A stretch of DNA of 33,462 nucleotides, taken from the IMG/VR virus record IMGVR_UViG_638341087_000016; one strand, 5' to 3'. Under the pieces are notes generated by a model, which saw nothing but the letters and a program-made list of their open reading frames with translations, searched no databases and was not told the DNA's origin. The position numbers and the translations under genes are program-made. Numbering within the stretch: the first letter of the stretch is position 1; each line of letters begins with the position of its first letter. Shown piece by piece: positions 1 to 33,144 of the stretch. This stretch comes from a virus. Lineage: Duplodnaviria > Heunggongvirae > Uroviricota > Caudoviricetes.

Positions 1-966
1 ATGAAGCTATACATCATCGGGAATGGGTTTGATCTGCATCACGAACTTGACACGAGCTATTTCTCATTTGGGGATTATCTTCGGAAGAAAGACCAAGACA
101 TTTACGATCACTTGGTTGATTTTATGGGATTTACTGACTTACCCCCTAAACTTTCCGCAGTTGATAAGTCAAAACATTTTCTTTGGTCTGATTTCGAAAA
201 CAGCTTAGCGGGTCTGGATACAGAGTCAGTGCTCGAAGAGTTTTGCTATCTTTTACCCCAAATTAGCAGCCCTGATTTTCGTGACAAGGACTGGGGCTCA
301 TTAAGCATTGAAATGGAACGTATACTAAAAAATTTAACCGAAGGGCTTTTAACACAATTCAAGTCATTTATATTGCAGGTTAACTACCCCGAACTTAATT
401 TAAATAAAAGATTGCGTATCGATTCTGACTCTATCTTTATCAGTTTTAATTATACTGAGACTCTTCAGAAATACTATGGTATTGATGATAGACAAATTTT
501 ATATATCCATGGAAAAGCATCATCAGATCAACAGTTGATTTTAGGTCATGGTATTGACCCTATCAACTTTGAAGAAAAGGAAGCAGTCCCGCCCGAAAAT
601 GCAACCGATGAAGAACTTGAAGAGTGGCGTCAGTGTATGGCTGATAATTACGATCACTCTTATGAAATGGGAAAGCAGACTATTAATAAATACTTCACTT
701 GTTCTTTTAAGAATACTGAAAAAGTCATTGCTGACAGCGCTAAATTTTTTAAAAATCTCAGCAACGTAGACGAAATCATCATCATCGGCCATTCGTTATC
801 ATCTGTAGATGTTCCCTACTTTTCTTTTATACATAGCATTGTTAGTGAAAATACGGAATGGATAGCCACCTATTATCAGGAAACTGAGCGTGAAGCACAT
901 CATACAACATTATGTGAGATTGGCATTAAATCTCCCAAACTGATTTCAGTAAGTAAACTTCTATAA
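1..966 (+). CDS. AbiH-like abortive infection protein
   Basis: 321-aa ORF beginning MKLYIIGNGFDLHHEL, the N-terminal signature I associate with the AbiH family; AT-rich relative to the phage core. Confidence 0.55.
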   Translation: MKLYIIGNGFDLHHELDTSYFSFGDYLRKKDQDIYDHLVDFMGFTDLPPKLSAVDKSKHFLWSDFENSLAGLDTESVLEEFCYLLPQISSPDFRDKDWGSLSIEMERILKNLTEGLLTQFKSFILQVNYPELNLNKRLRIDSDSIFISFNYTETLQKYYGIDDRQILYIHGKASSDQQLILGHGIDPINFEEKEAVPPENATDEELEEWRQCMADNYDHSYEMGKQTINKYFTCSFKNTEKVIADSAKFFKNLSNVDEIIIIGHSLSSVDVPYFSFIHSIVSENTEWIATYYQETEREAHHTTLCEIGIKSPKLISVSKLL

Positions 967-1550
967 ATAGAACAAAATATCACCCAGAGGGCGGGGGTTT
1001 TTATACGTTCCCCTCCCCCTTAGCTAGAGATCCTTTTATCAAAACTTCGTGCATCATTTTGCAAAACCCAAATCAAAGCAAACTAGCCGCCAGCCCTCAC
1101 CGCACAAGGCTTCACGATATCCGCCCCCGAAAACCATCGGATACCACCTAATCATTTTGATCGTCACGGAAACCAAAACGATCCTTTTAAAAACATCATG
1201 TTATCCAGTCAGTTAGTAGCTGGCGGCGCGATGACTTTTGCAAAGTGCTGCAAATCTTTGCGCAGAGTGCAACGCCCGCAGGATGCAAAAGCCCAGCAGC
1301 GGCGCAGGCTGGCGGGGTGCTTTGCACAAAATTTCTTTTGCAAAATTTTTATGATCCAAACTGCGCAGGCGGGTGCGGTGTAGCGCCGTTTCCGTCCTGG
1401 ATCCGCTTCCGTTTGCCTGCTGTCGCTTACGCTGTGGGCCGCTGTTGAACGAACGAAAGAAAGGCCGCACGGTGGCGACCTTTAATCTTTGCGCCTGCTG
1501 TGGCGCGTTCTGTGGTGTCTGGTGAGGTGTGCGGTTATGCCGCTTTTTTG

Positions 1551-3275
1551 TCAGGCTATCAGGGGGCCGTATTTGCTTTTCAATGTGCCGGTTTTATTGG
1601 CCGTTGCGGTGAACTGCGCCGCCTGCCCACTGGCCCCCGTATTGGGGTGAGTATGTGATGCGGCAGTCTCTGCCAGCTCCCTCACCACGTCCAGGGTGTC
1701 GGTGAGCAGTGTCAGGACGTTAATCTCTTCGCTTCCCAGCTTTACCACCGGGGCAATCAGTTGTTGCGCCTGGGCCACACTTCGGCGAATGCCGCTGATT
1801 TTTTCAGTCAGTGCGCCGCTGACGTTTGACGTGACATCCCCTTTCACGTCGTCTGTAACATTGCCCGCGACATCCCGTTTCACGTTCCGGCCAACACTGA
1901 CGGAATTGTCCTTGCTGCAGGTTACTGTCAGGTTGCCGGATGTGCCGACGCTGTAATCCCCCTCGCTGATATGAACGACCGCCCCGGCCAGAAGTGTGGC
2001 CGTGCCAAGCACGGTTGTTTTATCTGTTGCCTGGACCGTAGTTTCACGGGCAACCACTTTGCGGATCTCTTCGTCGGTGGTGACTTCGCGAGTCATGGAG
2101 TTTTCGCGGATTGTCTGATCCGTCTGGCGTTCCCAGTCTCCGGCAACCGTCACGCGCTGCGATACACCATCGCGCTGTTGCTGCAACTGCTCACCGGGTT
2201 TAACCGCTGGCAGGTTATGACCCTCCGCCATAATCTGACGCACAAAGGGCTTATCCTGCCGCCCCTCAGTGAACCCAACTTCAACCAGCGTGCCAGGGGG
2301 CGGAAACTGAAACATTCCTGACTCGCTGCCCGCCATTGGCACAGGTAGTGGAACGGCAGAATAGATCGGCGTATTTGCGGCTGGCTTGCCGTCTTCGTCA
2401 AGCAGCTGGAGATCCACGGCATAGCGTGGGCGGAATGGATCGGCAATATCCCCCCCTGAAACATCCTCGCTTGGCGCTTCCACCCTAGCGAATCTTGGAA
2501 GATGCAGGCCGCTTGCCAGCTCCGGGAATGCGTTTTCAATCTGCCGCTGAATGGGTGATTTTTGCAATGGCTGGCCGTTGGCTTTGTTGCGGGGCTGCCA
2601 GGTAATTGCCATGTCATCGTTATTTAGCCGGACCTGGTTCAGCCGCTGGCCGTTTACCTCCGCACCCGGGCGCAGGCTCTGAATCATTGGCACAACCATT
2701 GAATTTCCGCCTGCCGATTCCTGGCTAAATTCGTGCGGGATCTCCACTGGTTTTCCCGCAAAAAGACTATGCTCCGCAGCGCCGACGAAGACATCCCCGT
2801 CCGGCAACTGATACCAAAGATAATCCGTCACTGAAAATGCACGGCCCAGACTGGCAAAAAGCTGATAGCCCGTGCCGCTGTGCGTAAAGTGGGGGATCGG
2901 TTTATCTGCATAAGCAGCGCCGACCGGCGTTGTGACGGTCAGCCCGCTTTGCTCACTTATCCAGTCAGTAATCTGGCGCAACGTTGGATGCTGGAAAGAA
3001 CACGGCCACAATTTATCAAAGATGCCGACCAGCTCACGCACGAACAACCGGCATGTTCCATTATCAGCAGGCTGTGACCGTTCGACGTACCCGGTAAACC
3101 AGCGCAGGACCAGACCATCATAACCAACATCGATACGCACCATTTTGCCGGTGTAATCTGTCTCTGTCCCTGCCGTAATAAACCCCCGACCGCACGCGTT
3201 CAGCTCCAGCACGATATTGCAGTCAATCAGATGGACCGGATCAGAGGAAAGGTACAGGCGTTTAATTGGTTTCAT
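1551..3275 (-). CDS. D: Late control gene D-like baseplate hub protein with a C-terminal spike-like extension
   Basis: 574 aa; N-terminal region has the gpD-type VGYDG...FTGYVE pattern; C-terminal region has short repeats and an SHTHPNTG motif resembling spike apex HxH motifs; ATG start and TGA stop verified. Confidence 0.65.
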   Translation of the reverse strand: MKPIKRLYLSSDPVHLIDCNIVLELNACGRGFITAGTETDYTGKMVRIDVGYDGLVLRWFTGYVERSQPADNGTCRLFVRELVGIFDKLWPCSFQHPTLRQITDWISEQSGLTVTTPVGAAYADKPIPHFTHSGTGYQLFASLGRAFSVTDYLWYQLPDGDVFVGAAEHSLFAGKPVEIPHEFSQESAGGNSMVVPMIQSLRPGAEVNGQRLNQVRLNNDDMAITWQPRNKANGQPLQKSPIQRQIENAFPELASGLHLPRFARVEAPSEDVSGGDIADPFRPRYAVDLQLLDEDGKPAANTPIYSAVPLPVPMAGSESGMFQFPPPGTLVEVGFTEGRQDKPFVRQIMAEGHNLPAVKPGEQLQQQRDGVSQRVTVAGDWERQTDQTIRENSMTREVTTDEEIRKVVARETTVQATDKTTVLGTATLLAGAVVHISEGDYSVGTSGNLTVTCSKDNSVSVGRNVKRDVAGNVTDDVKGDVTSNVSGALTEKISGIRRSVAQAQQLIAPVVKLGSEEINVLTLLTDTLDVVRELAETAASHTHPNTGASGQAAQFTATANKTGTLKSKYGPLIA

Positions 3276-3282
3276 CGTTTAA

Positions 3283-3825
3283 TTACCCCAGCGCATCGTT
3301 GACCGGCTTTAAGACCTTTTCTTCAAACCAGCTCATTTTGTCGGCTGGCTCATCAGCTCCGGCAGCCGGACCCGCGCCCTTTGCCCCTGTTTGCTTGGTG
3401 CTGGCCGTCGCGTTGCCTTTTCGGGCCTGTCGTTTTTCCGGGACGCTGCCTTTTTCACGCAGGGTGAAACTTACCTGCCAGGCAAGGCGATCCTCCTGCG
3501 GTACGGCATCAATCTGACCGGTAAACGTGGCTTCACGAAGGTTGATAGCCGTCGCCGTCGCATTGGCGACGCGGTACTTTTTCAGTGCGCCGCTGGCTTC
3601 GGTCGCGGATGCCAGCTGGAAAAGCCGCTGTAAGACGGCTTCGTCGTCGAATGTCACCAGACCCGATACGCGCAGCTCTTTGGCCTTGATACCCTGTTCA
3701 GCATTGGCCGTGCTCGATGTCTGGCCCGACTGGTCCTTTTCCTGAAACTGCATGGAAGGTGAAACCAGCATGTTCTGCATGGCGATCCCTTCACCATCAA
3801 GCGCGAGTAATGCGGTCTGGCTCAT
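3283..3825 (-). CDS. Hypothetical phage tail/baseplate-associated protein
   Basis: 180-aa ORF in the tail operon, GC-rich like the phage core, Ala/Gly/Thr-rich; overlaps the upstream gene by 29 nt unless an internal Met is used. Confidence 0.4.
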   Translation of the reverse strand: MSQTALLALDGEGIAMQNMLVSPSMQFQEKDQSGQTSSTANAEQGIKAKELRVSGLVTFDDEAVLQRLFQLASATEASGALKKYRVANATATAINLREATFTGQIDAVPQEDRLAWQVSFTLREKGSVPEKRQARKGNATASTKQTGAKGAGPAAGADEPADKMSWFEEKVLKPVNDALG

Positions 3826-4531
3826 GTAGCATCTTCCCTAAGTCAGATAACGAATCCCCGATAAACATCATCGCGGCGGTATGCACTGCCGTTGTTTGCG
3901 GGATGCCTTTCAGCAATTCTGCGGCAGCAACGGCATAACTCCCGCTGTAACTGAATGCAAAAATATTCGCACTGGCGGCTTTCAGGTCGTCCAGTCCCTG
4001 GCTGAGCGAGGACAGCAAACCGGCCCGTTCCTGAATAAATCCCGTCACCTGGTTTTTTAGATCTGTTGTGGTGGTACTGACTGCGGCGGCCAGCTGCGCG
4101 GCGGCAACACGCTGGGCATTCAGCGCCAGCCGGTTGGTTGAGACTGATAACGGCGCACTGGCTGGCAATACATCGGCTTTAACCGGCAACTGCATTTTTA
4201 CCGTGCTGAGTTCTGCGGCGGCTGCGGCCATACGGCTTACCTGCGTAAATACCGGGGCCGGAAATACGGTGGACAGTTTATTCAGTCCCTGCATAAAAGC
4301 ATCGTGGGTATTCTCCGCCACCATCATGACGATGACATCACCGCTACCGCTACCGCTACCGCCACCGGATAACAGCTTTTTAGCAAGGTATCCCAGCGCA
4401 TTGGCCGGACTGAGATAACCGCCTGAATCGGTGTTCTGTCCCAGACCGTAAACCCAGGGATGCGCTGGCACAATTGAACAGGCCAGCGCCCCCATATCAT
4501 CAGCAATCTTTATAACCGACTCACGCCACAT
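3797..4531 (-). CDS. Hypothetical phage protein with a Gly/Ser linker
   Basis: ORF in the tail operon; start moved to the ATG at 4529-4531, which has a GGAGG about 9 nt upstream; contains SGGGSGSGSGD. Confidence 0.4.
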   Translation of the reverse strand: MWRESVIKIADDMGALACSIVPAHPWVYGLGQNTDSGGYLSPANALGYLAKKLLSGGGSGSGSGDVIVMMVAENTHDAFMQGLNKLSTVFPAPVFTQVSRMAAAAAELSTVKMQLPVKADVLPASAPLSVSTNRLALNAQRVAAAQLAAAVSTTTTDLKNQVTGFIQERAGLLSSLSQGLDDLKAASANIFAFSYSGSYAVAAAELLKGIPQTTAVHTAAMMFIGDSLSDLGKMLHEPDRITRA

Positions 4532-5108
4532 CGCCCGGAACCTCCGGCCAGTCAATATCTGGCGCATCTTCTGGCTTAATACGATTAATCAAAACCCTGT
4601 ATTTTTTCCACGCCAGCAAAAGCGCTGTTTCCTCTTCCGTTGCAATATCCAGATCAACAGCATCCTGTAATGGGGCAATTTTTGATGCAGCCAGCGCCAG
4701 AAGACTGTCTTTTTGCTGTGTAGCCTGTGTAATCTGTGCCGTTTTTTCTGCGTCAGCATCATGCACCCATTTTTTACCATTCCATTTAACAAAATGGCCT
4801 TCCGGCGCAACGGAAACAACGTCGTCAGGTAACTGACCTAATTCATCAATCGTGATGGATTTCCCGGTGAGAATGTCGTAAACAATTTTCCCGCGATGGT
4901 CTTCAACAAGTGACCATTTTTCTGACGCAGAATTAAATACAGCGACAAAACCGGCTTTCATCGGCGGTGGCGCAATATTGGTACTGTTAGCAGGCAAACC
5001 GGTATTAGCAGGGATAAACCCATCACTTTTCCCGATAAATTCATTTGTATCAGCACGCAGGTTATAGATGGTAATTGTCCGGTTTTCTCCGGTCATTTCA
5101 AAAGTCAT
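4521..5108 (-). CDS. Tail fibre assembly protein (Tfa / gpG-like)
   Basis: 195 aa beginning [48 protein letters not shown], a typical Tfa N-terminus; directly downstream of the fibre gene. Confidence 0.8.
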   Translation of the reverse strand: MTFEMTGENRTITIYNLRADTNEFIGKSDGFIPANTGLPANSTNIAPPPMKAGFVAVFNSASEKWSLVEDHRGKIVYDILTGKSITIDELGQLPDDVVSVAPEGHFVKWNGKKWVHDADAEKTAQITQATQQKDSLLALAASKIAPLQDAVDLDIATEEETALLLAWKKYRVLINRIKPEDAPDIDWPEVPGDVA

Positions 5109-7072
5109 CAGGCAAGCCTCACAATGTAGTTAAACGCAATATTTTTAACGGTATTTTCCGCATTTCCTGCGGCATGAACGGTCGCTGTATGTCCGTGATA
5201 GCCCATAACCACATAATGGTTATGCGCACCAATACCCACCCAGTGATCATGAGGGCCGATCCATGTCACATGAGCATGATTACCGCTTCCCTCAATGCGA
5301 TCTCCCGCCGCCCATGAAACATTAGACGAATGCATCCCCAGCCCCTGACCGGGGGTATCCCGGTATGCAGACGTTGCGCAATAACGAAAGTTATGTGCGT
5401 GCCACCCACCCTCAGTGGAGGATTTATTGCCGTAGTCAAAACTGGTTGTTGGTTTTGAACCATAATCAAAAGAGCTGGTGTATTTCGTCCCCAAATCGGT
5501 ATCGGAAATACTGGCTCCGTGGGTATGCGATATAACACCATCCTGTTCATACGAGAGTACCGCGCGACCGTTCGGTTTACCCTTAATCGTCTGGCCTCGC
5601 ATGTCCGGGATAATCCCCGCAGGATAGGCAATCGCTAGCAATGGATAGACCGCTTTATCAAAGGGCTGCCCCTGCATTAAGGCGTACCCTGTCGGGGTAA
5701 CATCCGATGGCCAGGGGATAGGTGCGCCGACAGGGTAAGAATCTTCTGGCATCCACGGCGTCCATGCCAGCGTTGAATACTTGCTGCGCGAATAACTGCG
5801 CGAGCTGTTGTACACACGATAAACCTGAGTGACTCCGGCACCTCTCAGTACCATCAGAGAACCCGCGCTATTCTCCGGGTAATTCATTGCTGCACTGGTA
5901 TTGTTGTTCGCTTCCTGAAAATAAAGCCCCGGTACCTGGTAATCATCCAGATTCTTATTTGCACCAATCGCTATAACCTGGCCGTCAAAAATATCCCGTG
6001 AAGTGACATTGATATCTCCATTCAGGGCATGGCCGTTCACTTTTCGTGATGCCGGAACGCGGCCATTTGCATTCTCATTCACCGCTTTTAATGCTTTTGG
6101 CGTGACGGCCATCGCTTCGGAATCACTGTTCGTTTCACTGCTTAACCGCACAAAACCCTTTTCACTGGTTGATGCATCAGGGTGATTTCGGGATTGTTCA
6201 TGCTTTTTCAGCGCATCGCTGGCCGCCTGGTCATTTAGCGTGCCTTTCGGGCGCAGGTCAGTGATATTTCCGGCAGCATCAATACTCGCCACCGCAAAGA
6301 CATAATGCTGCACACCGCCCAGCACATAATCGGCAAGATCTGCAGCAACAGTAATTTTGCTCTGTACAGCCCATTCGCTTGTTAACGTCCCGGTCCAGCT
6401 CACATCAAGCCAGATTTTTGTCGGTTTCGCGGATACTGTGATATTGAAGTTTGCGGGCAATTCGGCACGCAATCCGGCGACATATCCCGCCCCCTTTGTG
6501 ACAAAAAACTGATTGCCGGACTTTGCGACCAGATAGCCCGAATCAAAAAATGCCGCTGCGCCATACAGATCGATATTTTCCCGGCGCTGGCGTTCATCCA
6601 TTCCCACCAGTCGGGCAGTAAAATCAATCTGCCATGTCTCTGCCGGAGTGTTAATTTCGGTCGCTTCCCTGGCTCCGCTGTATTCCATCAGCATGGAACG
6701 AACAAGAACGTTTCCCTGCTGACCGTCTGCGTTTTTAATTTTTCGTTGGGTCGGGGCGTGAATAATCATCGCCAGTGTACCCGTTGCCTTATTTGCCAGC
6801 CCGATCCAGTTGAAATCAAAATCGCCCACATCCGCCCCCAGGGTAACGGAATAAACGACAGAGTTTTCATTCACAACACCGGCTTTATTCACCGCCTGAC
6901 GACAAACTATTTTATCTTCCGCTGGCGTTGTTTCAGTATTATTAATCGGCTTGTCAGCATCCAGCCCCGGAATATAAGCAAAAATAAACTCATCCAGCGT
7001 GACGGGCTGGTTATTAATTGCCTGCTGGGCTTTCCACTCTGCAAATGCTTTTGTAATGACGGCCTGTGACAT
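5108..7072 (-). CDS. Tail fibre protein (gpH-like N-terminus, His-rich C-terminal tip)
   Basis: 654 aa; conserved N-terminus and a C-terminal region with [30 protein letters not shown] histidine motifs typical of distal fibre tips. Confidence 0.8.
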
Positions 7073-7083
7073 TAATATTCCCT

Positions 7084-7683
7084 CTACTTCAAACTTGCGC
7101 TATATGTTGCTTCTGACTGGTTATTCACATCGCCCAGGGTGGCAGGCCAGCAAATATATTCCCCCTGATACCAGCCAATATTGATATTCAGTGGCAGGGT
7201 GTCGATTACTTCAAACTGGTAACGGCGGCATGTGCGCCCATATTTGCGAATGATTTCCAGCAGGAGATCGCCATTTTCCGCAACCTGGCTGCTTGTCACT
7301 CGAACGACAATCACGTCCCAGTCGAGTCCGTCCTGCCGTTCCAGTAATTCAACGTAACCAATCCCCAGTCGCTCAAAAATGGCAATAAAGCCCGCCACCT
7401 CTCCGGCCTGCTGCGCATTGATAAATGCGTAACTCACCCGCTTGCGGAAGATGTCGAGCGGCTCCCCCTTAAACCGATCGATGTCGCGCTCCCAGGCAAT
7501 CAGGTTCAACAGCGGCTCAGGGCAAACCAGCGGGTCAAACTGCTTTAACGGCCAGGTGATCCACCCGTACACCTGCGACCAGAACTTCACGCTGCCACGC
7601 AACAGCCTGGCGGGGTCGCCTTTGTTCAGCCACGACGGCAATTTCAGACCGGAAAGCAACTTCGAAAACTCAGTCATTTTCAA
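7084..7683 (-). CDS. Tail protein I-like (Mu gp48 / DUF2313-type)
   Basis: 199-aa ORF between the baseplate J-like gene and the fibre gene, the conserved position of this family. Confidence 0.6.
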
Positions 7684-8854
7684 TCTCCACCGTTAACCCT
7701 GACAGGCGCGGGACCGACAGTTCGCTGACAATATCCGTTAGTGAAAAATGCAGTGAATCGACAACCGGAAAAGCCTTGTGGATCTCGCGGCCCAGATTCG
7801 AAAAGGAATAGCGCGAATAGGGCTGCGTCTTTTTAACGTCGTAATTGGCGTTCTCGCGAAACGCGCAACGAATCAGGTCGGTAATACCGGTTTTTAACGC
7901 GCTCAGGTCTTCCGCTTCCATGTTTTCCACGCTTTTGACATAGACAGTAACCGCCAGGGTGTGACTGGTTTCCGGCATGGCATAACACTGCAGATCATCA
8001 CCGTGTCCGTGGTGGCCCTGGGTATTCACATAATCGTTAACCGCATCAATAAAGGGCTGTGATATTTCGCCGCTGTCCAGTAACAGATAAGCATTTGCCG
8101 TACCCGGCCCACGCGGGGCATCGTGCAAAAAGTAGATGCGATCAATGCTCAGGCCCAGCACGCTGGCAATCATGCTGCGGTAGATAGCGTCAGAGTGGTA
8201 ATTCCCCACCAGATTAAACTGGTTGCGGGTGCGGTCGCGCAGCTCGTCGTCGCTTTCCTCGTTAGCCCCTGGCGTAATCAGCCATTCGTCCTCATTGACC
8301 GCGCTGGCGATTCCAGCTACTGCAACAGGTAAGATCCGGTAATAGCCTGGCGCAAGGTTATAGCCGCTGCCGGTGCCGGTCGCCGTGACGGGAACCAGCC
8401 CGCTTTCAACCCCGGCAGGCAGTGTCACGTCTTCATTCACGGCCAGCACGTAAACCACGCCGTTAATGCGCTCTGTTTGCACCAGTGTTCCGGCAGGCAC
8501 GACGACCACATCCGCCGCATTCAGCTTGAAGAATCGCAGCACGCCAGCGGCAGCACTGGCCGGTTTAGGCTCGATATGAACCGCCCAGGCCAGCAGGCGC
8601 AGCATGGGACCGGTGGCAGTCGCAACAAACATATTGCGCAGAACCACATCGATCAGCGCCGCACGCAGCCATAACACCGGCGTGGTGACAATCTTCGAAA
8701 TCAGCCGCCAGAAAGGTGACATTCTCGACGTGTTTGTGACGAACCCTTCCGCCTGCACGGTGGCTTTAAATGCCGCCGTAATTTCGGCCTCTGTCGCGGG
8801 CATCCCGCTGTCATTCAGTACCTTTTCGAAATCAACGTCGGGTTTCTCAGTCAT
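7670..8854 (-). CDS. Baseplate J-like protein
   Basis: 394-aa ORF with a baseplate J-like sequence character; overlaps neighbours on both sides. Confidence 0.75.
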   Translation of the reverse strand: MTEKPDVDFEKVLNDSGMPATEAEITAAFKATVQAEGFVTNTSRMSPFWRLISKIVTTPVLWLRAALIDVVLRNMFVATATGPMLRLLAWAVHIEPKPASAAAGVLRFFKLNAADVVVVPAGTLVQTERINGVVYVLAVNEDVTLPAGVESGLVPVTATGTGSGYNLAPGYYRILPVAVAGIASAVNEDEWLITPGANEESDDELRDRTRNQFNLVGNYHSDAIYRSMIASVLGLSIDRIYFLHDAPRGPGTANAYLLLDSGEISQPFIDAVNDYVNTQGHHGHGDDLQCYAMPETSHTLAVTVYVKSVENMEAEDLSALKTGITDLIRCAFRENANYDVKKTQPYSRYSFSNLGREIHKAFPVVDSLHFSLTDIVSELSVPRLSGLTVEIEND

Positions 8855-9182
8855 AGTTAACCTCTGTACTGACAGGGCCGAAATCGTAGGTTTCCGCCGT
8901 GATATACAACCTCGAAAGGGTTTCTTCGGTGATCACTATGGTTCCTGGGACCAGACGTTCGTCGCTTTCCACCAGTAAGGACAGTTGCGTCAGCACGTCA
9001 CCGCGCATTGTCGGGCTGCGTTCACCGATCAGGCGGGTGGTGATACCGCTTTCCAGAATGCTGTGAATAATGTCCTGGGTGATGCTGTCGCGGTTATCGC
9101 AACGGCGCGGCTCGTTGCCGCTGTCCAGCGTGAAATCGCCGTCAGTGATCAAAAGGTCGATGTATAACGGTTCGGTACTCAT
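8847..9182 (-). CDS. Small baseplate protein (gpW/gp25-like or Mu gp46-like)
   Basis: 111-aa ORF immediately upstream of the J-like gene with start/stop overlaps. Confidence 0.5.
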   Translation of the reverse strand: MSTEPLYIDLLITDGDFTLDSGNEPRRCDNRDSITQDIIHSILESGITTRLIGERSPTMRGDVLTQLSLLVESDERLVPGTIVITEETLSRLYITAETYDFGPVSTEVNYD

Positions 9183-10570
9183 CCTGCGTTAAGCTCCTGC
9201 CATTCAGCCAGCTGGGCCGGGGTGATTCCATTGGGGGCGTTGATGTAGGTATCGCCCCACGTTTTACGGTTATCAACAGCGGTTTTGCTGTCGTTTTTAA
9301 CCTGACTCATCAGGCCGCCGCGTGGGATGCCTGCATTAATTCGGTTCCCCGTCAGCACGGACGGGCTGTTTAGCTTCGATGAACCTGCAGCACTGTCAGG
9401 AATGACCGCATTTGCCGGAACGGCAGCCGCTGCCGGTGGCGAAACGGTTTTCAGGTCGATGTTTACGCCGGGGATCTTGTTTAACTTCTCGACAATCCAG
9501 TTATAGGTAGACGCAAAGGTATTTTTGAGGACGTCAAAAAGTTTGCTGAATACCCCGCCGATGGTTTGTGCGAACCCTTCAAAGGTGGCAAGCGGGGAAA
9601 GACCGGCAAAGAAATCAACCACCACGGCCCAGCCGTCTGTGATGGACTGCCAGACCTGCGCAAACACCTGGCCTACCTGTTCAGCGACCGACATCACCCA
9701 GGCAAAAGCCGACGTATCCATGATTGCTGCCGCCAGTTCTTCCCAGTGGGTGATGACATACCAGACCCCCACGGCCAGAAGTGCCAGCCCGGCAACGATC
9801 AGAGTGATCGGACTCATCAGGAGTTGCATTGCCGCCCCGGCAAACATGGTCGCCGCACCGTAAACCCGCATGGCAATGGCTCCGGCCTTTAACGCGATAT
9901 TCCATGCAGCAAGCGCGATGCGGCAGACGCCCGTCCACAGCGCCAGTAATTTTGACTGGATCCACAATGCAGCCAGACCGATGCGCGTCGTCAGCAGGAA
10001 CGGACGCAACAGGTTGAGCGTCCATAACAGGAGTTTCCATGCCCCGCCCAGCACTTTTGCAATTGCGGCCAGCCCTGTCATGGTGAAGCCAAAGACCCCC
10101 ATCACGATATTGACCGCCGCCCCAGCCAACCCGAAGGACAGCACGCCCAGGGTGATGTAACCCAGCCAGCGGGCAATATTCGGGAACATATCCAGCCAGC
10201 GGGCAAATTTTGTCCCTACGTCGGCAATACGGTTCATCAGCGGCGACAGGATAGGGAACAGCGTGTTACCAATCGCCACGCGAATGGCAAAGAATGTCGC
10301 TTTGATACGTTCCCACGGCTCAGCCATTCGTTCGGCCATTTCCTGGGCGCGTTTCATCCCGTCATTTCGGCCCAGCTCGGTGATGCTGCGGTTTAATTTA
10401 TCCTGCTGGCCGTACAGCTTTTTGATAACGTCAGCACCACCACCGAACGCGGCATCCAGCGCCTGTTGTGCCTTGACGTTCCCTTCAATGCTCTGCCCGT
10501 ATTTGTTCTGGAGTTTTTGCAGAATGTCGCCCATCGGCAGCATTTTTCCGGTGGCATCGACAAAGCTCAT
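9179..10570 (-). CDS. Tail tape measure protein, C-terminal portion (downstream of the in-frame TAG)
   Basis: 463 aa with hydrophobic Gly/Ala-rich segments typical of tape measure proteins; the frame stays open upstream from 10570 to 10732. Confidence 0.7.
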   Translation of the reverse strand: MSFVDATGKMLPMGDILQKLQNKYGQSIEGNVKAQQALDAAFGGGADVIKKLYGQQDKLNRSITELGRNDGMKRAQEMAERMAEPWERIKATFFAIRVAIGNTLFPILSPLMNRIADVGTKFARWLDMFPNIARWLGYITLGVLSFGLAGAAVNIVMGVFGFTMTGLAAIAKVLGGAWKLLLWTLNLLRPFLLTTRIGLAALWIQSKLLALWTGVCRIALAAWNIALKAGAIAMRVYGAATMFAGAAMQLLMSPITLIVAGLALLAVGVWYVITHWEELAAAIMDTSAFAWVMSVAEQVGQVFAQVWQSITDGWAVVVDFFAGLSPLATFEGFAQTIGGVFSKLFDVLKNTFASTYNWIVEKLNKIPGVNIDLKTVSPPAAAAVPANAVIPDSAAGSSKLNSPSVLTGNRINAGIPRGGLMSQVKNDSKTAVDNRKTWGDTYINAPNGITPAQLAEWQELNAG

Positions 10571-10732
10571 ACCCAGCTTTTCAGCGGCAGCCGGGGCGCT
10601 GCGTAAAAACTGCTCGTAGATCCCGCTGGCCTCAGTACCCAGCGTGCGCGAAAGCGTACCCAGTACGGCGAACTGTTCATCCAGGCTGACGCCAAAGTCA
10701 GCACCGGCGCTTTTCGTCCCCTCGATAAGCTC

Positions 10733-11293
10733 CTACATGGTCTGCATTTTCACGCCGAAGTTTTGCACCATGTACGCCGTTTTTCCTGCCAGCTCTTCGG
10801 CAAAACGCACATGCCCCAGACTGGACAATTCCGCGTTGAAACGTGACGCCATCGCGCCGATGTATTCGCCTGCCTCTTCGCCGCTGGCCTTGACGCCTGC
10901 GGCCAGGGTATTGGCCGCGATGGTAACGCGGGGCAGGTCCAGATCGGACAGGCCCGCCATTGCGCCTTTCATCGCGTAGCTTGACCGGACCACATCAACG
11001 GCCCCTTTGCCGTAGCGCATACTGAATCGCATGGCTTCGCCGGACATACGCTTCAGCGCGTCCTCTGCTACGCCTTTGGAACCCACTTCTGCAAGCGCGG
11101 CGTTCATCTCATACGCCGGACCCACCACGCCCGCGATGGACTGCGCCACGCCCCAGACAGCCGCCGCACCAATCCCGATTTTTGTAAAAGACTCCTGCGA
11201 TTTTTCAGCAAAGCCAGACAGCGAAGACTGGGCCGTCTTTAATGGCCGCGTCAGCTTATCGATCAGGCTCAGGGTAAAATCCAGGTGGCTCAT
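10733..11293 (-). CDS. Tail tape measure protein, N-terminal portion ending at an in-frame TAG
   Basis: 186 aa in the same frame as 9179-10570; TAG at 10733-10735 verified from the sequence; ATG at 11291-11293. Confidence 0.7.
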   Translation of the reverse strand: MSHLDFTLSLIDKLTRPLKTAQSSLSGFAEKSQESFTKIGIGAAAVWGVAQSIAGVVGPAYEMNAALAEVGSKGVAEDALKRMSGEAMRFSMRYGKGAVDVVRSSYAMKGAMAGLSDLDLPRVTIAANTLAAGVKASGEEAGEYIGAMASRFNAELSSLGHVRFAEELAGKTAYMVQNFGVKMQTM

Positions 11294-11294
11294 A

Positions 11295-11492
11295 TCAGTT
11301 TCCGTTAAATGCGATTGCTATCCCTTCCGCCGTCTTACTGGCGCGGGTCTGGGCGAAATATTCATCCAGCCACAGGGCGCGGGCGATGCTTTCTTCGTCG
11401 TCGTCTTCGTGCGGGAGGTAATAGCGGCGCAAGGCAAGGTATTGCTCCAGGGCATTCGTGCGAATGGCCGCTACCCGCGCCGTCAGTTTTTT
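11295..11492 (-). other. Candidate -1 programmed frameshift extension of the tail assembly chaperone
   Basis: mRNA reads GUA AAA AAC UGA at the chaperone end (slippery A_AAA_AAC at 11486-11492); the -1 frame is open for 63 codons to a TGA at 11295-11297; the +1 frame is also open across this gap, so the direction rests on the slippery heptamer. Confidence 0.55.
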
Positions 11493-11752
11493 ACTTCGAT
11501 CTCAAGTTTTGGGGAGTAAATTTCGTTAACCTTCTCGACGATCTGCATTTCGCAGCCCGGATAATCTTCCATCAGCTTGTTGAGCGCCTCTTTACACTCG
11601 GCATCAACAATGCGGCCCAGATACGTCACCATTGGGGCAACTTTATTGGTCATGGTCATTTCGTTAAGCAGGTTGTTGAACGCGGTTTTATTCGGCTCAA
11701 AGCTCAGATTTACGCCCGCCACGGTCATGGCGATTTTTTTCGATTTGCTCAT
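11483..11752 (-). CDS. Tail assembly chaperone
   Basis: 89-aa ORF immediately upstream of the tape measure gene, ending in a slippery heptamer. Confidence 0.6.
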   Translation of the reverse strand: MSKSKKIAMTVAGVNLSFEPNKTAFNNLLNEMTMTNKVAPMVTYLGRIVDAECKEALNKLMEDYPGCEMQIVEKVNEIYSPKLEIEVKN

Positions 11753-12045
11753 TGTGCTAATTCCTTACGTTGTCGAATGATGCCCACCAGGGCGTTATGT
11801 CGGGCGGCGCAGTCGGTATACATCAGCCGGTAGGCTTTCAGCGCCGCGTCAAAGTCACTTCCGGTCGGTCCGGCCAGACGTGGCAACGTGACCGGGCAAA
11901 GTGCCAGCTGGTTTTCCTGATAATTTTCGTTCGGCTTGATCTGCACTTTCGTTGAACAACCGGACGTAATCATCAGAAGCACAAACATTGCTAAAAACCG
12001 ATTTAATGGTTTCCGTGCGGATAACCCGTTCCGTATGAATTTCAT
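11749..12045 (-). CDS. o-spanin (Rz1-like outer-membrane lipoprotein)
   Basis: 98 aa with a positively charged N-region, hydrophobic core and MITSGC lipobox; starts inside the i-spanin gene and extends past its end. Confidence 0.6.
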   Translation of the reverse strand: MKFIRNGLSARKPLNRFLAMFVLLMITSGCSTKVQIKPNENYQENQLALCPVTLPRLAGPTGSDFDAALKAYRLMYTDCAARHNALVGIIRQRKELAQ

Positions 12046-12238
12046 TGGCCCTCAGCTCCGCGAGTTTTGCTTCCAGCGCTTCACCAGACTGCTGTGTCAC
12101 CTCAACAACAATCTGGCGCGTTTGTTCTGCCGCTTCACTGGCAGCGAGTTTCAGCTTTGCGTCGTGCCAGTCATGCGCCTGCCAGCCCGCTGACATTGCA
12201 GCTGCCAGAATCAGCAAAAGACCCAGCAAATTGCGCAT
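11855..12238 (-). CDS. i-spanin (Rz-like)
   Basis: 127 aa with an N-terminal TM helix (LLGLLLILAAAMSAGW) and a charged helical periplasmic region; follows the endolysin gene. Confidence 0.6.
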   Translation of the reverse strand: MRNLLGLLLILAAAMSAGWQAHDWHDAKLKLAASEAAEQTRQIVVEVTQQSGEALEAKLAELRANEIHTERVIRTETIKSVFSNVCASDDYVRLFNESADQAERKLSGKPAGTLPGHVATSGRTDRK

Positions 12239-12576
12239 CAGCGAACCCCGTTATGCTCAAGACTGAAATGGTTCCCGTCCGGCTTACTGAAACGTCCACC
12301 CCACGATCCGCCGATAGATTCCCAGTATTCGCCCAGGGGGCGATATGCGGCGCTGTCGGTCTGGTATTCGCCGTTAATAAACAGGTTAAAATCCACCGCA
12401 AGGCGCTGGGTATGCAGGCTGTTAGTAATGCCGCTCCCTTTTTTTGCGTTAAGCGCGGCCTGTTCCGGCGTGCGGTACGCTTCGCCAAACGTCAGGCGAT
12501 AGCCTTTTTCCTGGGCAAAATGAATCAGGCTGGCGATCATCACCGTAAAAAGTTGCTGTTTTTCACTCAGTTTCAT
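12238..12576 (-). CDS. Endolysin, peptidase M15-type
   Basis: 112 aa with Zn-ligand spacing H-x6-D (SLHTQRLAVD) and a second His (DGNHFSLEH), characteristic of M15 peptidoglycan peptidases. Confidence 0.75.
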   Translation of the reverse strand: MKLSEKQQLFTVMIASLIHFAQEKGYRLTFGEAYRTPEQAALNAKKGSGITNSLHTQRLAVDFNLFINGEYQTDSAAYRPLGEYWESIGGSWGGRFSKPDGNHFSLEHNGVR

Positions 12577-12874
12577 TGCGCTTGCTCCCCCATCGCTTGA
12601 TATACATGTCCAGGCAGCGCTTTAGCCCCGCCTCAATAAACGCACTTCCCAGAATGCCCAGGGCGCAGGCCAGCCCAATGACGACCAGTTCCGGCATATC
12701 GGGGAATTTCAGCAGCGGGATTGCGGCCAGCGGTGCGACTGCAGATCCCAGAATCATCCGCCCGACCAGCAGACGGGTTGTGATTCGCTCATTGCTGACC
12801 ATCAGTTGCCCCAGGCCGATCACGGCCCCGATAAGCAACAGCTTTTCAAGCAGTGACGTTTCTCCGTTCATCAT
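12563..12874 (-). CDS. Holin (P2 gpY-like)
   Basis: 103-aa membrane protein resembling the P2 Y holin (TTRLLVGRM, LLKFPDMPEL); directly upstream of the endolysin. Confidence 0.65.
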   Translation of the reverse strand: MMNGETSLLEKLLLIGAVIGLGQLMVSNERITTRLLVGRMILGSAVAPLAAIPLLKFPDMPELVVIGLACALGILGSAFIEAGLKRCLDMYIKRWGSKRNETE

Positions 12875-12878
12875 CGTG

Positions 12879-13334
12879 TCAGCCTTTCAGATCTCGAGTG
12901 TCACGGGCTGACAGGTACGGCACGCCGTCAATCGCGACAAAGTCCGGGCTTGTCACCATGAATTTAATTTTTTTCGTGGTTTTGCTGGCCTCGTTGGGGT
13001 TGATGTTGACGATGTCGGACAGCGTCGGAACACAGCCAAACACCTCGATTTTTTCTTCGTCATCCCCCGCATTGGCATAGAACAAAAAGTCCTTTGCCGG
13101 AATGGCTCGCCAGGAACCTGCGGCACGGGCAACGGCGGTAAACTTTTTAAAGCTCTGGGAATCGACTTCGACTTCCACATCCGCCGAAACTGACCCTTTC
13201 GTGTGGCCGTTCGGGATGCCACGCGACTGCGCAACGGCGCTGTTATCCGTAATGGTGACGGTGGCGTTTTCGACGTGAATCATGATGCTGTCGTAGTTCA
13301 CATCGAACGATCCGCCGCTAATACGTTCAGTCAT
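12879..13334 (-). CDS. Tail tube protein
   Basis: 151-aa ORF immediately downstream of the sheath gene; size and position fit a contractile-tail tube. Confidence 0.65.
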   Translation of the reverse strand: MTERISGGSFDVNYDSIMIHVENATVTITDNSAVAQSRGIPNGHTKGSVSADVEVEVDSQSFKKFTAVARAAGSWRAIPAKDFLFYANAGDDEEKIEVFGCVPTLSDIVNINPNEASKTTKKIKFMVTSPDFVAIDGVPYLSARDTRDLKG

Positions 13335-13337
13335 TGA

Positions 13338-14480
13338 TTAGCTCTCCAGTGAGGTGTCCAGTTCGATGCTGACGCTGATTTCTTTCGCGCTCTCATACGG
13401 TCGAACCACAAGGTAAATCTGTACCGCTTCGCTACTGGTCCAGGTGATGGTGATGTCTCCGTCCTTTGGTGGCTTCACTTCGCCCGGAAATTCGACGCCA
13501 TTGATCTGGGTTGAAATCGCCATTTCACGCAGCGGCTTGCCGAAATAGGTTTCATGCGCGGCAATGCTGCCCGGTGTGCTGTTCAGTGAACGATCGGCAA
13601 TTTTGGGGATAGCACGCAGACGGACGCGTCGGGATGCTTTATCAACCACGCGCACGTTTTCAATGACCTGATAATCGCCGCCTTCAACGTCCAGGGTGCG
13701 ACCGTCAGCCCAGTAGATGCCGTCATAGTCGTGATACCACATCGGCACGCTGTAGCGGTTCACCTGCAGGGACTGCAACACGGACAGATCAATTTCGGCT
13801 CCCGTCCCGTCAACCGGCAGTTTGTCACGCCCCAGCGCGGTGACTGCGCCGGTTGCAACGCGGGCGGGGCTGTCTGCCACCGTCACCGAACGGTTACACA
13901 AGCGACCGGCCAGGACGCCGGGTTCATTGCCCCACAGACGCGGGACCAGTTGCACACCCGGTGACGCAATACCGTCCTGGAGTTGTGCCAGGCGCGTCAC
14001 ATAATCGGCCCATGCTTCGCCCTGTTTCGGCCCGCCTATCGCAAGGCCAAACCAGATAAATCGCCCATAATTAGCCTGCAAGGTGATACGCATTTCCGTT
14101 GCACGGTTGATGGTTGCCACTTCGTCGGTATCAAATACCAGGAAAACCCCTTCCACGGATGCCACGCTCTGGGCCATCTTGACCGCGTTCATCCAGTCTT
14201 CATCTGGTTTATAGCCCTCGGCTTCCTTGTCTGGTTCTGCCAGCACATGCACGTAAGCAAACCAGTTCTGACCGGCGTTATTGGCCGCTGCGGCCACCAT
14301 ATTTTTTAACGGGCTGTCTTTGTCGCCCAGGGCTTTATCCAGATCGCTGCCGGTATTCAGCGACTGGGTTTTCCCGATGTTAGTGTCGCCGTAACCCACA
14401 AAGAGGATGACGCGCTCGACGTCGTTCGTTGTGCCGTTGAAGCGGTTGTTCTGACTGACGTTGACATTCGGCCAGGTCAT
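13338..14480 (-). CDS. Tail sheath protein (non-P2 type)
   Basis: 380-aa ORF preceding the tube gene; does not resemble P2 FI as I recall it; assigned by position and size. Confidence 0.65.
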   Translation of the reverse strand: MTWPNVNVSQNNRFNGTTNDVERVILFVGYGDTNIGKTQSLNTGSDLDKALGDKDSPLKNMVAAAANNAGQNWFAYVHVLAEPDKEAEGYKPDEDWMNAVKMAQSVASVEGVFLVFDTDEVATINRATEMRITLQANYGRFIWFGLAIGGPKQGEAWADYVTRLAQLQDGIASPGVQLVPRLWGNEPGVLAGRLCNRSVTVADSPARVATGAVTALGRDKLPVDGTGAEIDLSVLQSLQVNRYSVPMWYHDYDGIYWADGRTLDVEGGDYQVIENVRVVDKASRRVRLRAIPKIADRSLNSTPGSIAAHETYFGKPLREMAISTQINGVEFPGEVKPPKDGDITITWTSSEAVQIYLVVRPYESAKEISVSIELDTSLES

Positions 14481-14482
14481 TT

Positions 14483-15178
14483 TTACCCCCTGATTTGCTG
14501 CGCGTTGACGTCCCAGCCGAAGCCGATTGCCTGCATTTGCCGCGCAATAATTTGGTTAAATTCGTCGTTGCTCACCCCCAGAAAAACGCGCCCAGGAATA
14601 TCAATGGTCCATGTGCGTTTTGAGGGTGTGCCTTTCAGTTTTCGAATCAGTAATCCCGCCTGGGCCATGCTCATGGTTTCCATGATTTGCTTGCTGGACG
14701 GCTTAACCCAGCGTTTGCCCTTGCGGGTTTTGTAACCCAGCGCCCGCAGACGCTTGGCCTGTCGCGGTAGCGCTGGCTTGTCAGCCTGCGGCTTACGCGG
14801 GGCGTTACTGGCTTTCATCTGGATCCGTGCGCCGTCCTGCTGGACCGCGCCGACCAGACCCGCCGCGATGGGCTTCGTCCCGTTCCGGTAGTTCCCGCCC
14901 TTGAGGTAAATTCTTACCCCCTGAATCTCCGGCATTTCGCGCACGGCCAACAGCTTGGGCAGCCCTTTTAACATCTTCCCTTTGCCACGCTTGCGCGGCT
15001 CCCACGGCGTACCGTCCGGGGCCGCCTGCTGGCGCTGGTGACGTTTTGCCGCTGCGACAATGCCCAGCTTTGCAATACGCCATAAAAGGCGCTGGCGCTT
15101 ACGCGGGGGAAGGTCAGCTTTTGCCAGCGTTTCCCGCATCTGCTTTAGCTGTTGCTGGTTCAGCTCCCCACGGATCAC
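14483..15178 (-). CDS. Virion morphogenesis protein (gpS-like)
   Basis: 231 aa; N-terminal RKRQRLLWRIAKLGIVAAAKRHQRQQAAPDGTPW resembles the P2 gpS pattern. Confidence 0.6.
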   Translation of the reverse strand: MIRGELNQQQLKQMRETLAKADLPPRKRQRLLWRIAKLGIVAAAKRHQRQQAAPDGTPWEPRKRGKGKMLKGLPKLLAVREMPEIQGVRIYLKGGNYRNGTKPIAAGLVGAVQQDGARIQMKASNAPRKPQADKPALPRQAKRLRALGYKTRKGKRWVKPSSKQIMETMSMAQAGLLIRKLKGTPSKRTWTIDIPGRVFLGVSNDEFNQIIARQMQAIGFGWDVNAQQIRG

Positions 15179-15651
15179 GACGCGTCACCACGCTGGACAA
15201 TAAATTCCAGTTGCGACGCCTCCCAGATTTCGGGGTTTACGATGTCCCATTTCTTGCCCTTGAAAGGGATCGGCCCTTTTTCCACTTCACGCAGGACCAG
15301 CGGATCAACCAGCGGGACAACCACATCCAGAATGCATGACCCTTCGTCGTCGAACTCCGGGTCCACGGTGGGATCGGCTAACTTCAGTTCGTCGCGCAGC
15401 TCGTTGGCGAACTCATCCACCCAGGCCAGCACCAGGGCATAAATCAGCCCCGGCGAATATTTGCGGTAGGGGAAGTCATCCCACGACAAACGGGCGGTGT
15501 AAGTCAGCACTCCGATCCGGCGCTGGTTGTTTCCCAGCGCTTTGGCGTTGCGTACCAGCTCGCAATCCTCCATTGAACTGGAAAACATCTGCATGGCATC
15601 AGGCGGCAGATTTGCCGTAATAAACGCCGTCAGGCTTTCAAGCTGGCTCAT
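15175..15651 (-). CDS. Tail completion protein (gpR-like)
   Basis: 158 aa containing a LVLAW motif as in P2 gpR; overlaps L and the S-like gene. Confidence 0.6.
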   Translation of the reverse strand: MSQLESLTAFITANLPPDAMQMFSSSMEDCELVRNAKALGNNQRRIGVLTYTARLSWDDFPYRKYSPGLIYALVLAWVDEFANELRDELKLADPTVDPEFDDEGSCILDVVVPLVDPLVLREVEKGPIPFKGKKWDIVNPEIWEASQLEFIVQRGDAS

Positions 15652-16121
15652 ATCAGATGCACCCCCACGCGTGGTTGCCGCAGCATGTTTCGCATCACGT
15701 TGGCCGCCTCGGCCAGCAGGCTGGCGCGGGTGTCCTGGCTTTCCTGCCCCGGATGCGATTCACGCCGCCCGATGGTGGCGAACTCCCCCAGCAAATCGGC
15801 CTTTGCGCGGGCGTAGACCGCTTTTTTGTACTGGGCTGTTAACTGGGTTTCGTCGCCCATCTTTGCACCCGGTACATCTGCAGCCCGCTCGCAGGCTTTC
15901 GCGTTCCAGTACGTCACCACGTCGGCCAGCGCGTCGTTTACTTCCGCAATAGCAGCCAGCAGGGCCACGCCTGCGGTTTCTGGCGGCAGATCGGCGGGTA
16001 GCGTGCGCACCTTCTGAAACTCGGCCAGATCGAGATCGGGCCAGAATGTCACGCCGTTGGTGATCGCTGTTGGCGTCACCGTCACCGGCTTGCCGCTGAT
16101 ACTGAAACTTGGGCCACTCAT
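15648..16121 (-). CDS. L: Head completion/stabilisation protein L
   Basis: Follows M as in P2; start set to the ATG at 16119-16121, which has GAGG 7 nt upstream, rather than the longer ORF start at 16181. Confidence 0.75.
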   Translation of the reverse strand: MSGPSFSISGKPVTVTPTAITNGVTFWPDLDLAEFQKVRTLPADLPPETAGVALLAAIAEVNDALADVVTYWNAKACERAADVPGAKMGDETQLTAQYKKAVYARAKADLLGEFATIGRRESHPGQESQDTRASLLAEAANVMRNMLRQPRVGVHLI

Positions 16122-16223
16122 TGGCGCACCTCGGTTTTGCAATAGAAATGGGCTAACGGGTTCCACGGCCAACAACCGCATGGTTGATGCCTCCCCCGCG
16201 CCCGTCCCGGCTTGCGGGAGTCG

Positions 16224-16925: not shown

Positions 16926-16927
16926 TT

Positions 16928-17950: not shown

Positions 17951-17978
17951 AATCTTTTATTCCTGAAAAGAATGGCTG

Positions 17979-19040: not shown

Positions 19041-19216
19041 AACTGACCTTTAATAATGAATTTAATAACAATGATTCGTTTGTGGTGGTCAGTATTGCGA
19101 ATTGATTAAAACAGCGCGACCGCTTTATTTCTTATGTATTCGGTTATAAATACATAGCCACTTTTTACCGATATTTAATTATCAATTCTGCAAAATAATC
19201 CCGCCATAATAGCCGC
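19041..19216. promoter_or_regulatory. Divergent late promoter region between O and P with a dyad element
   Basis: 176-bp AT-rich gap between divergent head operons; dyad TTATGTAT...ATACATA at about 19133-19158 (TGT-N14-ACA). Confidence 0.4.
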
Positions 19217-31861: not shown

Positions 31862-32875
31862 ATGACAATTAAGAAACTCGATGATGGTCGTTATGAAGTG
31901 GACATCAGACCTGCAGGGCGCAACGGAAAGCGCATCCGCAGGAAATTTGACAAGAAAAGTGAGGCTGTAGCTTTTGAGAAACACACTCAATACAACCATC
32001 ACGATAAAGAATGGTTGGCTAAACCGACAGATAAGCGGCATCTGTCTGAATTAACGAAAGTCTGGTGGGATCTGAAAGGCAAGCATGAAGAACACGGAAA
32101 ATCTAATTTGGGTAAGATTGAAATCTTTACCCGGATCACTGATGACCCTTGCGCGTTCCAGATAACCAAAGCGCTTATTAGCCAGTACAGCATGACTCGC
32201 AGAGGGCAAGGCATAAAACCGACCAGTATTAACCGCGATCTTACCTGCCTGAGTGGTATGTTTACTGCGCTAATTGATGCGGAATTGTTCTTTGGTGAAC
32301 ATCCTTTCAGAGGGATGAAAAAGCTCAAGGAGCAGAAACCAGAAACCGGCTATCTGACGCAGGAAGAAATAACATTGTTGCTTGCCAATCTTGACGGGGA
32401 CAACAAGAAAATCGCGATTCTCTGTTTAAGTACCGGCGCTCGATGGGGTGAGGCCGCGAAACTGAAAGCTGAGAACGTAATACAGAATCGGGTGACGTTC
32501 GTTAAAACAAAGACGAACAAACCGCGTACTGTCCCTATCTCTGAGGAAGTGGCTGTAATGATTGCGGGTAAAGGTTATCTGTTCCCTGATGCCTCATACC
32601 CGAAGTTCAGGCGAACAATGAAAGATGTAAAACCAGATCTACCGGACGGGCAAGCAACTCACGCATTGCGTCACAGTTTTGCTACCCACTTTATGATTAA
32701 CGGCGGGAGTATCATCACCTTGCAGAGAATACTGGGACATTCACGGATAGAGCAGACAATGGTTTATGCGCACTTTGCCCCGGAGTATCTTCAGGATGCT
32801 GTTTCACTCAATCCGCTACGTGGTGGTGTTGACTCCCAGAGTGTCCACACTGTGTCCACACTGTGTCCACAGTAG
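31862..32875 (+). CDS. int: Tyrosine integrase (P2 Int-like)
   Basis: 337 aa with near-identity to P2 Int over long stretches (KKLDDGRYEVDIRP.GRNGKRIRRKFDKKSEAVAFEK; HALRHSFATHFMINGGSIITLQRILGH.RIEQTMVYAHFAPEYLQDA). Confidence 0.95.
   Translation: MTIKKLDDGRYEVDIRPAGRNGKRIRRKFDKKSEAVAFEKHTQYNHHDKEWLAKPTDKRHLSELTKVWWDLKGKHEEHGKSNLGKIEIFTRITDDPCAFQITKALISQYSMTRRGQGIKPTSINRDLTCLSGMFTALIDAELFFGEHPFRGMKKLKEQKPETGYLTQEEITLLLANLDGDNKKIAILCLSTGARWGEAAKLKAENVIQNRVTFVKTKTNKPRTVPISEEVAVMIAGKGYLFPDASYPKFRRTMKDVKPDLPDGQATHALRHSFATHFMINGGSIITLQRILGHSRIEQTMVYAHFAPEYLQDAVSLNPLRGGVDSQSVHTVSTLCPQ
32841..32872 (+). repeat. 11-bp tandem direct repeat (gtgtccacact, about 2.9 copies) at the 3-prime end of int
   Basis: gtgtccacact gtgtccacact gtgtccacag, immediately before the int stop codon. 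Confidence 0.8.
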
Positions 32876-32964: not shown

Positions 32965-32986
32965 CCCTTACACGGGCTTATTTTTT
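32965..32986 (+). other. Prophage attachment-site core (P2 locI / cyaR 3-prime terminator type)
   Basis: CCCTTACACGGGCTTATTTTTT matches the 3-prime end of the P2 att core / cyaR terminator as I recall it; lies about 90 bp downstream of int. Confidence 0.65.
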
Positions 32987-33144
32987 ATGCATAAGCCCTA
33001 TCCCTGGTCACCGTCTTCCATTGACCACATCGATAGAATCTCCCTTCATAGCACGATGCCTTTCACGTAACGGCATCGTGCTCGCACAGGTTCCGGCTAA
33101 GCACAACCAGAACGCGCATGTTTGACGCTTACCAAAAAATATTC

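Follow-up and report, generated by a model that had tools for sequence, protein, structure and literature searches.

A cassette-borne AbiH gene with a predicted SIR2-type fold beside attP of an Escherichia coli Peduoviridae prophage: a probable NAD+-depleting anti-phage effector

The first open reading frame (ORF) of the Caudoviricetes record IMGVR_UViG_638341087_000016 in IMG/VR, a 33,462-nt stretch of DNA that we call the window throughout, is a genuine single-gene member of the AbiH abortive-infection family, and it is carried inside an E. coli prophage as a discrete cassette between the last tail gene and the phage attachment site (attP). We consider it probable (about 0.7) that this cargo encodes a SIR2-fold anti-phage effector that depletes nicotinamide adenine dinucleotide (NAD+) upon infection. 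That the gene belongs to the family was already known, as RefSeq WP_000780870.1 is the identical protein and bears the name "bacteriophage abortive infection AbiH family protein", and what is known of the family is unchanged by our analysis.

The ORF starts with MKLYIIGNGFDLHHEL, and the first base of the window is the A of its ATG. The initial annotation, made from the sequence alone, had recognized an AbiH-like N-terminus in an AT-rich gene and proposed a candidate defence gene, and the search with hidden Markov models (HMMs) extended this resemblance to the whole protein: the match to Pfam PF14253 reached 205.3 bits (cut-off 30.9, E 2.4e-60) and aligned residues 3-291 with profile positions 1-260 of 260, i.e., the full model, while the PADLOC AbiH model gave 101.1 bits (E 2.1e-29). 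The reading as a candidate defence gene stands on this family match. A scan of the protein against NCBIfam returned no matching model. The GC content is 0.35-0.39 across positions 1-1000, against 0.55-0.60 across the adjoining tail genes. Across 42 aligned sequences with 41-92% identity to the window protein, the residues G7, N8, G9, F10, D11, F149, N150, T152 and H170 were invariant, as were G182, H183, G263, H264, S265 and D270. The gene stands alone, as the cassette of about 1.07 kb holds no second ORF, and its neighbours in the E. coli/Salmonella prophage are wholly unlike those in a Klebsiella island, while those in a Yersinia element with TrbL and TrfA are different again, indicating that there is no conserved partner. 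The segment 1-3300 was found identical in 19 of 5,426 complete E. coli genomes, with one copy in each and a chromosomal location every time.

Because the window begins at the ATG, the left boundary of the element is not visible within it, and the composition of the gene is unlike that of the phage, as would be expected if the gene were host chromosome or a separate small island integrated in tandem outside the prophage. We therefore read the left flank from genomes identical to the window over 1-3300 (RM13322, our locus L001) and from two IMG/VR loci, L095 and L096, that match the window at 100% identity over -349..1753. The 3' end of cyaR is an attachment site for P2-family phages, and the prophage is integrated there, between yegQ and yegR. 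The leftward extension proposed in the initial annotation arrived at a 22-bp att core in the 3' end of cyaR, 165 bp 5' of the ATG, and the exact repeat of this core lies at the other end of the window, where the order is integrase gene, core and yegR. A search of the window at up to three mismatches found the copy at 32965-32986 only (0 expected by chance), so that, as had been claimed, no att core separates the AbiH gene from the next gene. With the cores at -186..-165 and 32965-32986 and none between them, the gene is inside the prophage. The 63 bp following the left core are a phage-side arm common to an otherwise unrelated, true P2-like prophage of strain T-HYM1, which occupies the same cyaR core in the order D - ogr - att - cyaR and whose integrase DNA is 94% identical to that of the window. 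The cassette lies within this arm-plus-hairpin region, and in relatives with an empty site the flanks join seamlessly. A location in the host chromosome or a tandem island is thus extremely improbable, and a tandem island with a degenerate third core was ruled out by the core search together with the seamless empty site. The earlier view of the gene as prophage cargo (a moron) rather than host DNA is upheld by its position inside the cores and by near-identical prophages at the same site that lack it.

The host side of this site has a history of its own. The 13-mer CATTGACCACATC of the phage-side arm (L001 11884-11896) occurs a second time at window 33019-33031, in the host-side DNA near yegR, 33 nt beyond the right core. 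About 1,480 E. coli genomes have a copy of the first 70-90 bp of the arm, at 77-90% identity. The presence of CATTGACCACATC on the host side of the right core suggests that the "bacterial" att site is itself a scar left by an earlier P2-family prophage, as is the case in K-12.

The boundaries of the cassette were obtained by comparison with relatives. We compared 56 IMG/VR relatives of the baseplate gene next to the cassette, five of which carry AbiH. AbiH is missing from two of the loci, L105 and L099, whose baseplate gene is 97-98% identical and which share the yegQ/cyaR flank; L105 has the identical 22-bp core, and an exact-match search for the core in L099 did not find it. In blastn, the homology of both to the window covers -349..-74 and resumes at 992..1753, the latter at 92-94% identity. 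A three-way alignment showed that the empty site is the left and right junctions joined via a common GCGGGG(G)TTTT, and the baseplate stop and the core are 1715 bp apart in prophages with AbiH and 641 bp apart in those that lack it, which gives the cassette its length of about 1.07 kb. Since prophages with 97-98% identical baseplate genes at the same site lack it, AbiH is a discrete insertion. A strong hairpin, AAACCCCGU...GCGGGGUUU (-14.5 kcal/mol, z score -3.85), separates the phage-side att arm from the tail genes, and its 3' half is the junction repeat of about 10 bp. Thus, the cassette is inserted in this terminator-like hairpin, with attP on one side and the last tail gene on the other, and is flanked by the repeat.

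The AbiH protein is predicted to adopt a SIR2-type Rossmann (sirtuin-like) fold. Its motifs are GNGFD (residues 7-11), FNYT (149-152), IHG (169-171), GHG (182-184) and GHSLSSVDVP (263-272), and four motifs appear in the same order when the sequence is aligned by eye with E. coli CobB (GAGIS/GNGFD, TQNID/SFNYT, HMHG/YIHG and IGTSGHVYP/IGHSLSSVDVP). Each of these four sirtuin-like motifs comes after a predicted beta-strand, and all of them are invariant in the 42 homologues. The best structural matches were defence SIR2 proteins, namely SIR2-HerA, PsSIR2 and ThsA, and a phylogenetic study groups AbiH with the immune "SIRim" SIR2 subfamily (bioRxiv 10.1101/2024.09.18.613514). A sirtuin similarity of the lactococcal AbiH has been reported from HHpred and NAD+ depletion has been proposed, with the mechanism listed as unknown in a 2026 review (PMC13064643), and an AbiH of Vibrio was found to protect by 5.7 logs and to be inhibited by Tlaloc and Enki, two small proteins of phages (bioRxiv 10.1101/2024.06.14.598830). 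In our view, the window protein is most probably an effector that consumes NAD+ once infection activates it. We infer that the gene would be expressed in the lysogen and that its product would remain inactive until another phage infects; the infection would then trigger the consumption of NAD+ by the SIR2 active site, for which N150 and H170 and the putative NAD-binding loops GNGFD and GHSLS..VP are the candidates, and the loss of NAD+ would stop phage production in the infected cell, a presumably abortive outcome by which the lysogen population and the resident prophage would be protected.

Nevertheless, a number of results weigh against this reading. The Foldseek support was weak (best E 8e-3, TM score at most 0.38), phmmer and a profile HMM run against the PDB sequences gave no SIR2 match to AbiH, and the Pfam SIR2 families gave none even at E<=10. 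In hhalign, the comparison of AbiH with CobB, as a single sequence or as a shallow profile, returned a probability below 1% and placed H183, not H170, opposite the catalytic histidine at negligible confidence, although this was a weak test because the CobB profile was shallow (all listed homologues at least 83% identical). A search of 1.8 Mb of genomic loci for further SIR2 sequences turned up CobB alone. As the sequence-profile methods missed the SIR2 relationship, N150 and H170 are equated with the catalytic pair only as candidates, and H183, which is invariant too, is an alternative candidate. No member of the family has an experimentally shown mechanism (PMC13064643), and the published phage-resistance data come from Lactococcus and Vibrio proteins only (PMC13064643; bioRxiv 10.1101/2024.06.14.598830). 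In addition, tblastn of AbiH against 50,697 phage genomes found no homologue, and the gene thus lacks a precedent among those isolated phages. Unfavourable, too, are the signals around the gene: there is no convincing sigma-70 promoter in the approximately 75 bp between the hairpin and the ATG, where the best site has 7/12 matches, and no strong plus-strand terminator follows the AbiH stop. The fold of 960-1060 is no better than that of shuffled sequences. A promoter and a terminator of its own belong to the classical definition of a moron.

The main rival to NAD+ depletion is target-specific ADP-ribosylation. In this case AbiH would still be a SIR2-fold defence protein, but one acting without bulk NAD+ depletion, either by ADP-ribosylating (SirTM-type) or deacylating a specific phage or host target or by making an NAD-derived product. 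We regard this as unlikely, as the proteins structurally closest to AbiH are the defence SIR2s named above, its phylogenetic place is in the immune SIRim subfamily, and a direct reading of its sequence shows that it is devoid of the CxxC zinc-ribbon module of the deacylating sirtuins. The depletion of NAD+ by the AbiH protein is therefore preferred here.

The signals upstream of the gene also bear on whether it has any present role. Past the hairpin, the ATG is preceded at 8 nt by a good Shine-Dalgarno sequence (GGAG), and the sole promoter-like site with 9/12 matches in the 165 bp searched upstream falls in the att arm, on the far side of the hairpin. The T-tract of the hairpin was shortened by the insertion from TTTTTT to TTTTCTTC. 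Antisense late transcription could be kept out of AbiH by a weak terminator-like hairpin that lies downstream on the minus strand (993->981). Since the cassette may lack its own promoter and sits in a hairpin terminator with a shortened U-tract, the gene might be transcribed only by read-through, which in the integrated state would start from the host cyaR promoter (CRP-cAMP dependent) or from the promoter-like site in the phage arm and in the circular phage from the integrase gene; we find this quite doubtful, and if it is true, the expression of the defence gene depends on integration and possibly on the host catabolite state.

The low promoter score and the terminator-like hairpin just 5' of the gene (z -3.85), together with the viability of this phage type without it (SI7, L099 and L105), would also suit a passenger DNA with no current role, either silent (promoterless and perhaps silenced by H-NS) or serving the phage cycle. 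This explanation is improbable in the light of how well the gene is kept. No variant from E. coli, Salmonella or IMG/VR has a disrupted ORF, and the dN/dS ratio (nonsynonymous to synonymous substitution rate) is about 0.35, which points to purifying selection; the family-invariant residues are all retained, and 19/19 E. coli genomes with the prophage keep the gene at >=99.9% identity. Moreover, a decayed prophage at the same yegQ-yegS locus (L150 1-7897, Logan SRR28386961) still has a copy that is 83% identical in amino acid sequence. In this remnant, the structural genes for heads and tails (the segment equivalent to window 1694-21468) are gone along with most of the early region, and a fragment of the portal gene, ogr/Delta and a hotspot gene of another kind (570 aa) have stayed, which looks like the domestication of cargo genes. 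More distant homologues, with 56% identity, are found on an integrative island of Klebsiella, where HNH/McrA-like genes lie on either side, and on a Yersinia element that carries the conjugation/replication genes TrbL and TrfA, and these contexts and the retention in L150 fit a mobile defence gene. Vibrio homologues are about 45% identical to the window protein. A scan of genome contigs with the single protein found no match, and the same scan with an AbiH alignment found 489 distant relatives, mostly of Bacteroidota and Proteobacteria, which were uninformative on the locus.

The Klebsiella loci (L087-L091 6581-10188) deserve a separate remark. They fall within the cargo region of a CP4-57-like island, where the 56% identical AbiH homologue is consistently bracketed by two HNH-domain genes, the upstream one encoding 388 aa and the downstream one, in 4/5 loci, an HNH_2 protein of 352-370 aa, and ScoMcrA-like genes adjoin in at least 4/5 loci. 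The grouping may be a defence-gene cluster, or it may be a partnership that is missing from the E. coli cassette.

The AbiH of Lactococcus lactis, reportedly described by Prevots et al. in 1996, is the founder of both Pfam PF14253 and the "AbiH" system of DefenseFinder and PADLOC. The window gene resembles it as a single gene of about 320-350 codons with a full-length match to the family HMM and a predicted sirtuin-like fold, and also in being on a mobile element, the lactococcal gene being mostly associated with integrative and conjugative elements (ICEs) (PMC13064643); it differs in its Gram-negative host and in its carrier, which is a Peduoviridae prophage and not an ICE or chromosome. With the Vibrio AbiH (bioRxiv 10.1101/2024.06.14.598830) it shares the character of a gammaproteobacterial single-gene AbiH with a SIR2-like domain, whereas the genomic context differs. 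Unlike ThsA (Thoeris), DSR1/DSR2, SIR2-HerA (Nezha), SIR2-pAgo and Avs5, the window protein has no fused or partner sensor of the SLOG, HerA, pAgo or STAND type, and the profile tools applied here detected no similarity to those SIR2 NADases; the NADase activity of AbiH is putative. As AT-rich anti-phage cargo of a P2-family prophage of E. coli, the gene is comparable to the contents of the P2 old/tin hotspot (Rousset et al. 2022, PMC9122126), but its place is between the last tail gene and attP, whereas the hotspot is flanked by replication gene A and the portal gene; neither AbiH nor the orf35-attP slot comes up in that paper. The coordinates of the features are collected in Table 1.

Table 1. 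Features of the AbiH-carrying prophage and its surroundings. Positions are those of the window unless a locus is named.
Feature	Position	Strand	Remarks
AbiH-family coding sequence	1..966	+	321 aa plus stop; predicted SIR2-like fold
3' tail of the cassette	967..1002	+	ends in the right junction-repeat copy, 991-1002, GCGGGGGTTTTT
Phage backbone spacer, cassette to last tail gene	1003..1550	.	common to AbiH-less relatives
HP1 orf35-like baseplate protein	1551..3275	-	574 aa; last structural gene; convergent with AbiH
Orphan ORF	22672-25464	-	930 aa; 28-32% GC; between the gpA-like replication gene (25829-28441) and the ogr-like/portal genes
D12-class (Dam-like) adenine methyltransferase	28438-29328	-	directly upstream of the replication gene; early operon
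Tyrosine integrase	31862..32875	+	Pfam Int_N and Phage_integrase; reads toward the right att core
Right att core, 22 bp, CCCTTACACGGGCTTATTTTTT	32965..32986	+	exact repeat of L001 11814-11835
Left att core, 22 bp, CCCTTACACGGGCTTATTTTTT	-186..-165 (beyond the window)		3' end/terminator of cyaR; 165 bp before the AbiH ATG
cyaR small RNA gene	L001 11747-11832		Rfam 100.7 bits; yegQ upstream of cyaR
Loci with alternative slot cargo	L147, L100, L124; L115; L092

The gene next to the cassette had been taken for gene D of P2, with an end of the prophage arranged like that of P2 itself, where ogr and then the att site follow, and neither holds. The product of 1551-3275 matches PHROG 2258 "baseplate protein" with E 2.9e-276 and in tblastn is 97% identical to its counterpart in the Salmonella phages SI7, SW5 and SW3 (Irrigatiovirus, Peduoviridae) and 41% identical, over the full length, to orf35 of the Haemophilus phages HP1 and HP2, which rules out P2 gpD; the gene after it matches HP1_ORF34. 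The ogr/Delta-like gene is at 22083-22409, beside the portal gene, and a D - ogr - att layout at the AbiH end is thereby ruled out as well. The prophage is a member of the Peduoviridae with an SI7/HP1-like tail and P2-like capsid, replication and integrase genes. Its tail end is collinear with those of SI7/SW5/SW3 and HP1 (tail fibre, assembly protein, two small genes, ORF34-like gene, orf35-like gene and attP), but those phages run from orf35 to attP without AbiH, and the integrase/att module of SI7 is different, being 68-81% identical in patches only. In blastn, positions 1055-3300 are 95% identical to SI7, and the homology stops below 1055.

The orf35 gene is the last one before attP in HP1, HP2, ESSI-2-like phages and SI7, and the interval between the two accepts other cargo. 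One occupant, in L147 (downstream 510-1019) between the baseplate and integrase genes, is a conserved protein of 169 aa that has a zinc ribbon at its N-terminus and a single transmembrane helix; a 191-aa hexapeptide acetyltransferase is another, and the Yersinia phage vB_YenM_324 (L092 4706-6724) has a YfbU-domain protein and three small ORFs in the slot. Five alternative slot proteins were scanned against PADLOC and gave no match. Hence, HP1/SI7-like phages have a cargo slot at the orf35-attP junction, and it is not the same as the P2 old/tin hotspot.

The old/tin hotspot of this prophage is occupied too. The 930-aa ORF lies in the classic position of that hotspot and matched nothing in Pfam, PADLOC, NCBIfam and the PDB sequences; its only matches were PHROGs of unknown function. 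This orphan is a candidate defence gene, and probably one of greater interest than AbiH. SI7 has two methyltransferase genes at the place equivalent to window 28438-29328. The RM13322 copy of the prophage (L002 8899-10112) has an insertion of an IS3-family insertion sequence beside cox, which may have crippled it, and the window is free of this insertion and must therefore derive from a different one of the 19 strains.

The prophage occurs in O103:H2, O111:H2 and O45:H2 strains among others, and AbiH is one more defence gene in the inventory of this prophage. The cargo slot differs from the published P2 hotspot yet is of a familiar kind, and the AbiH case is in this respect an ordinary one. 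Pairs of prophages with and without the cassette are a clean natural control for the function of AbiH, and the E. coli background in which they are found is a tractable one.
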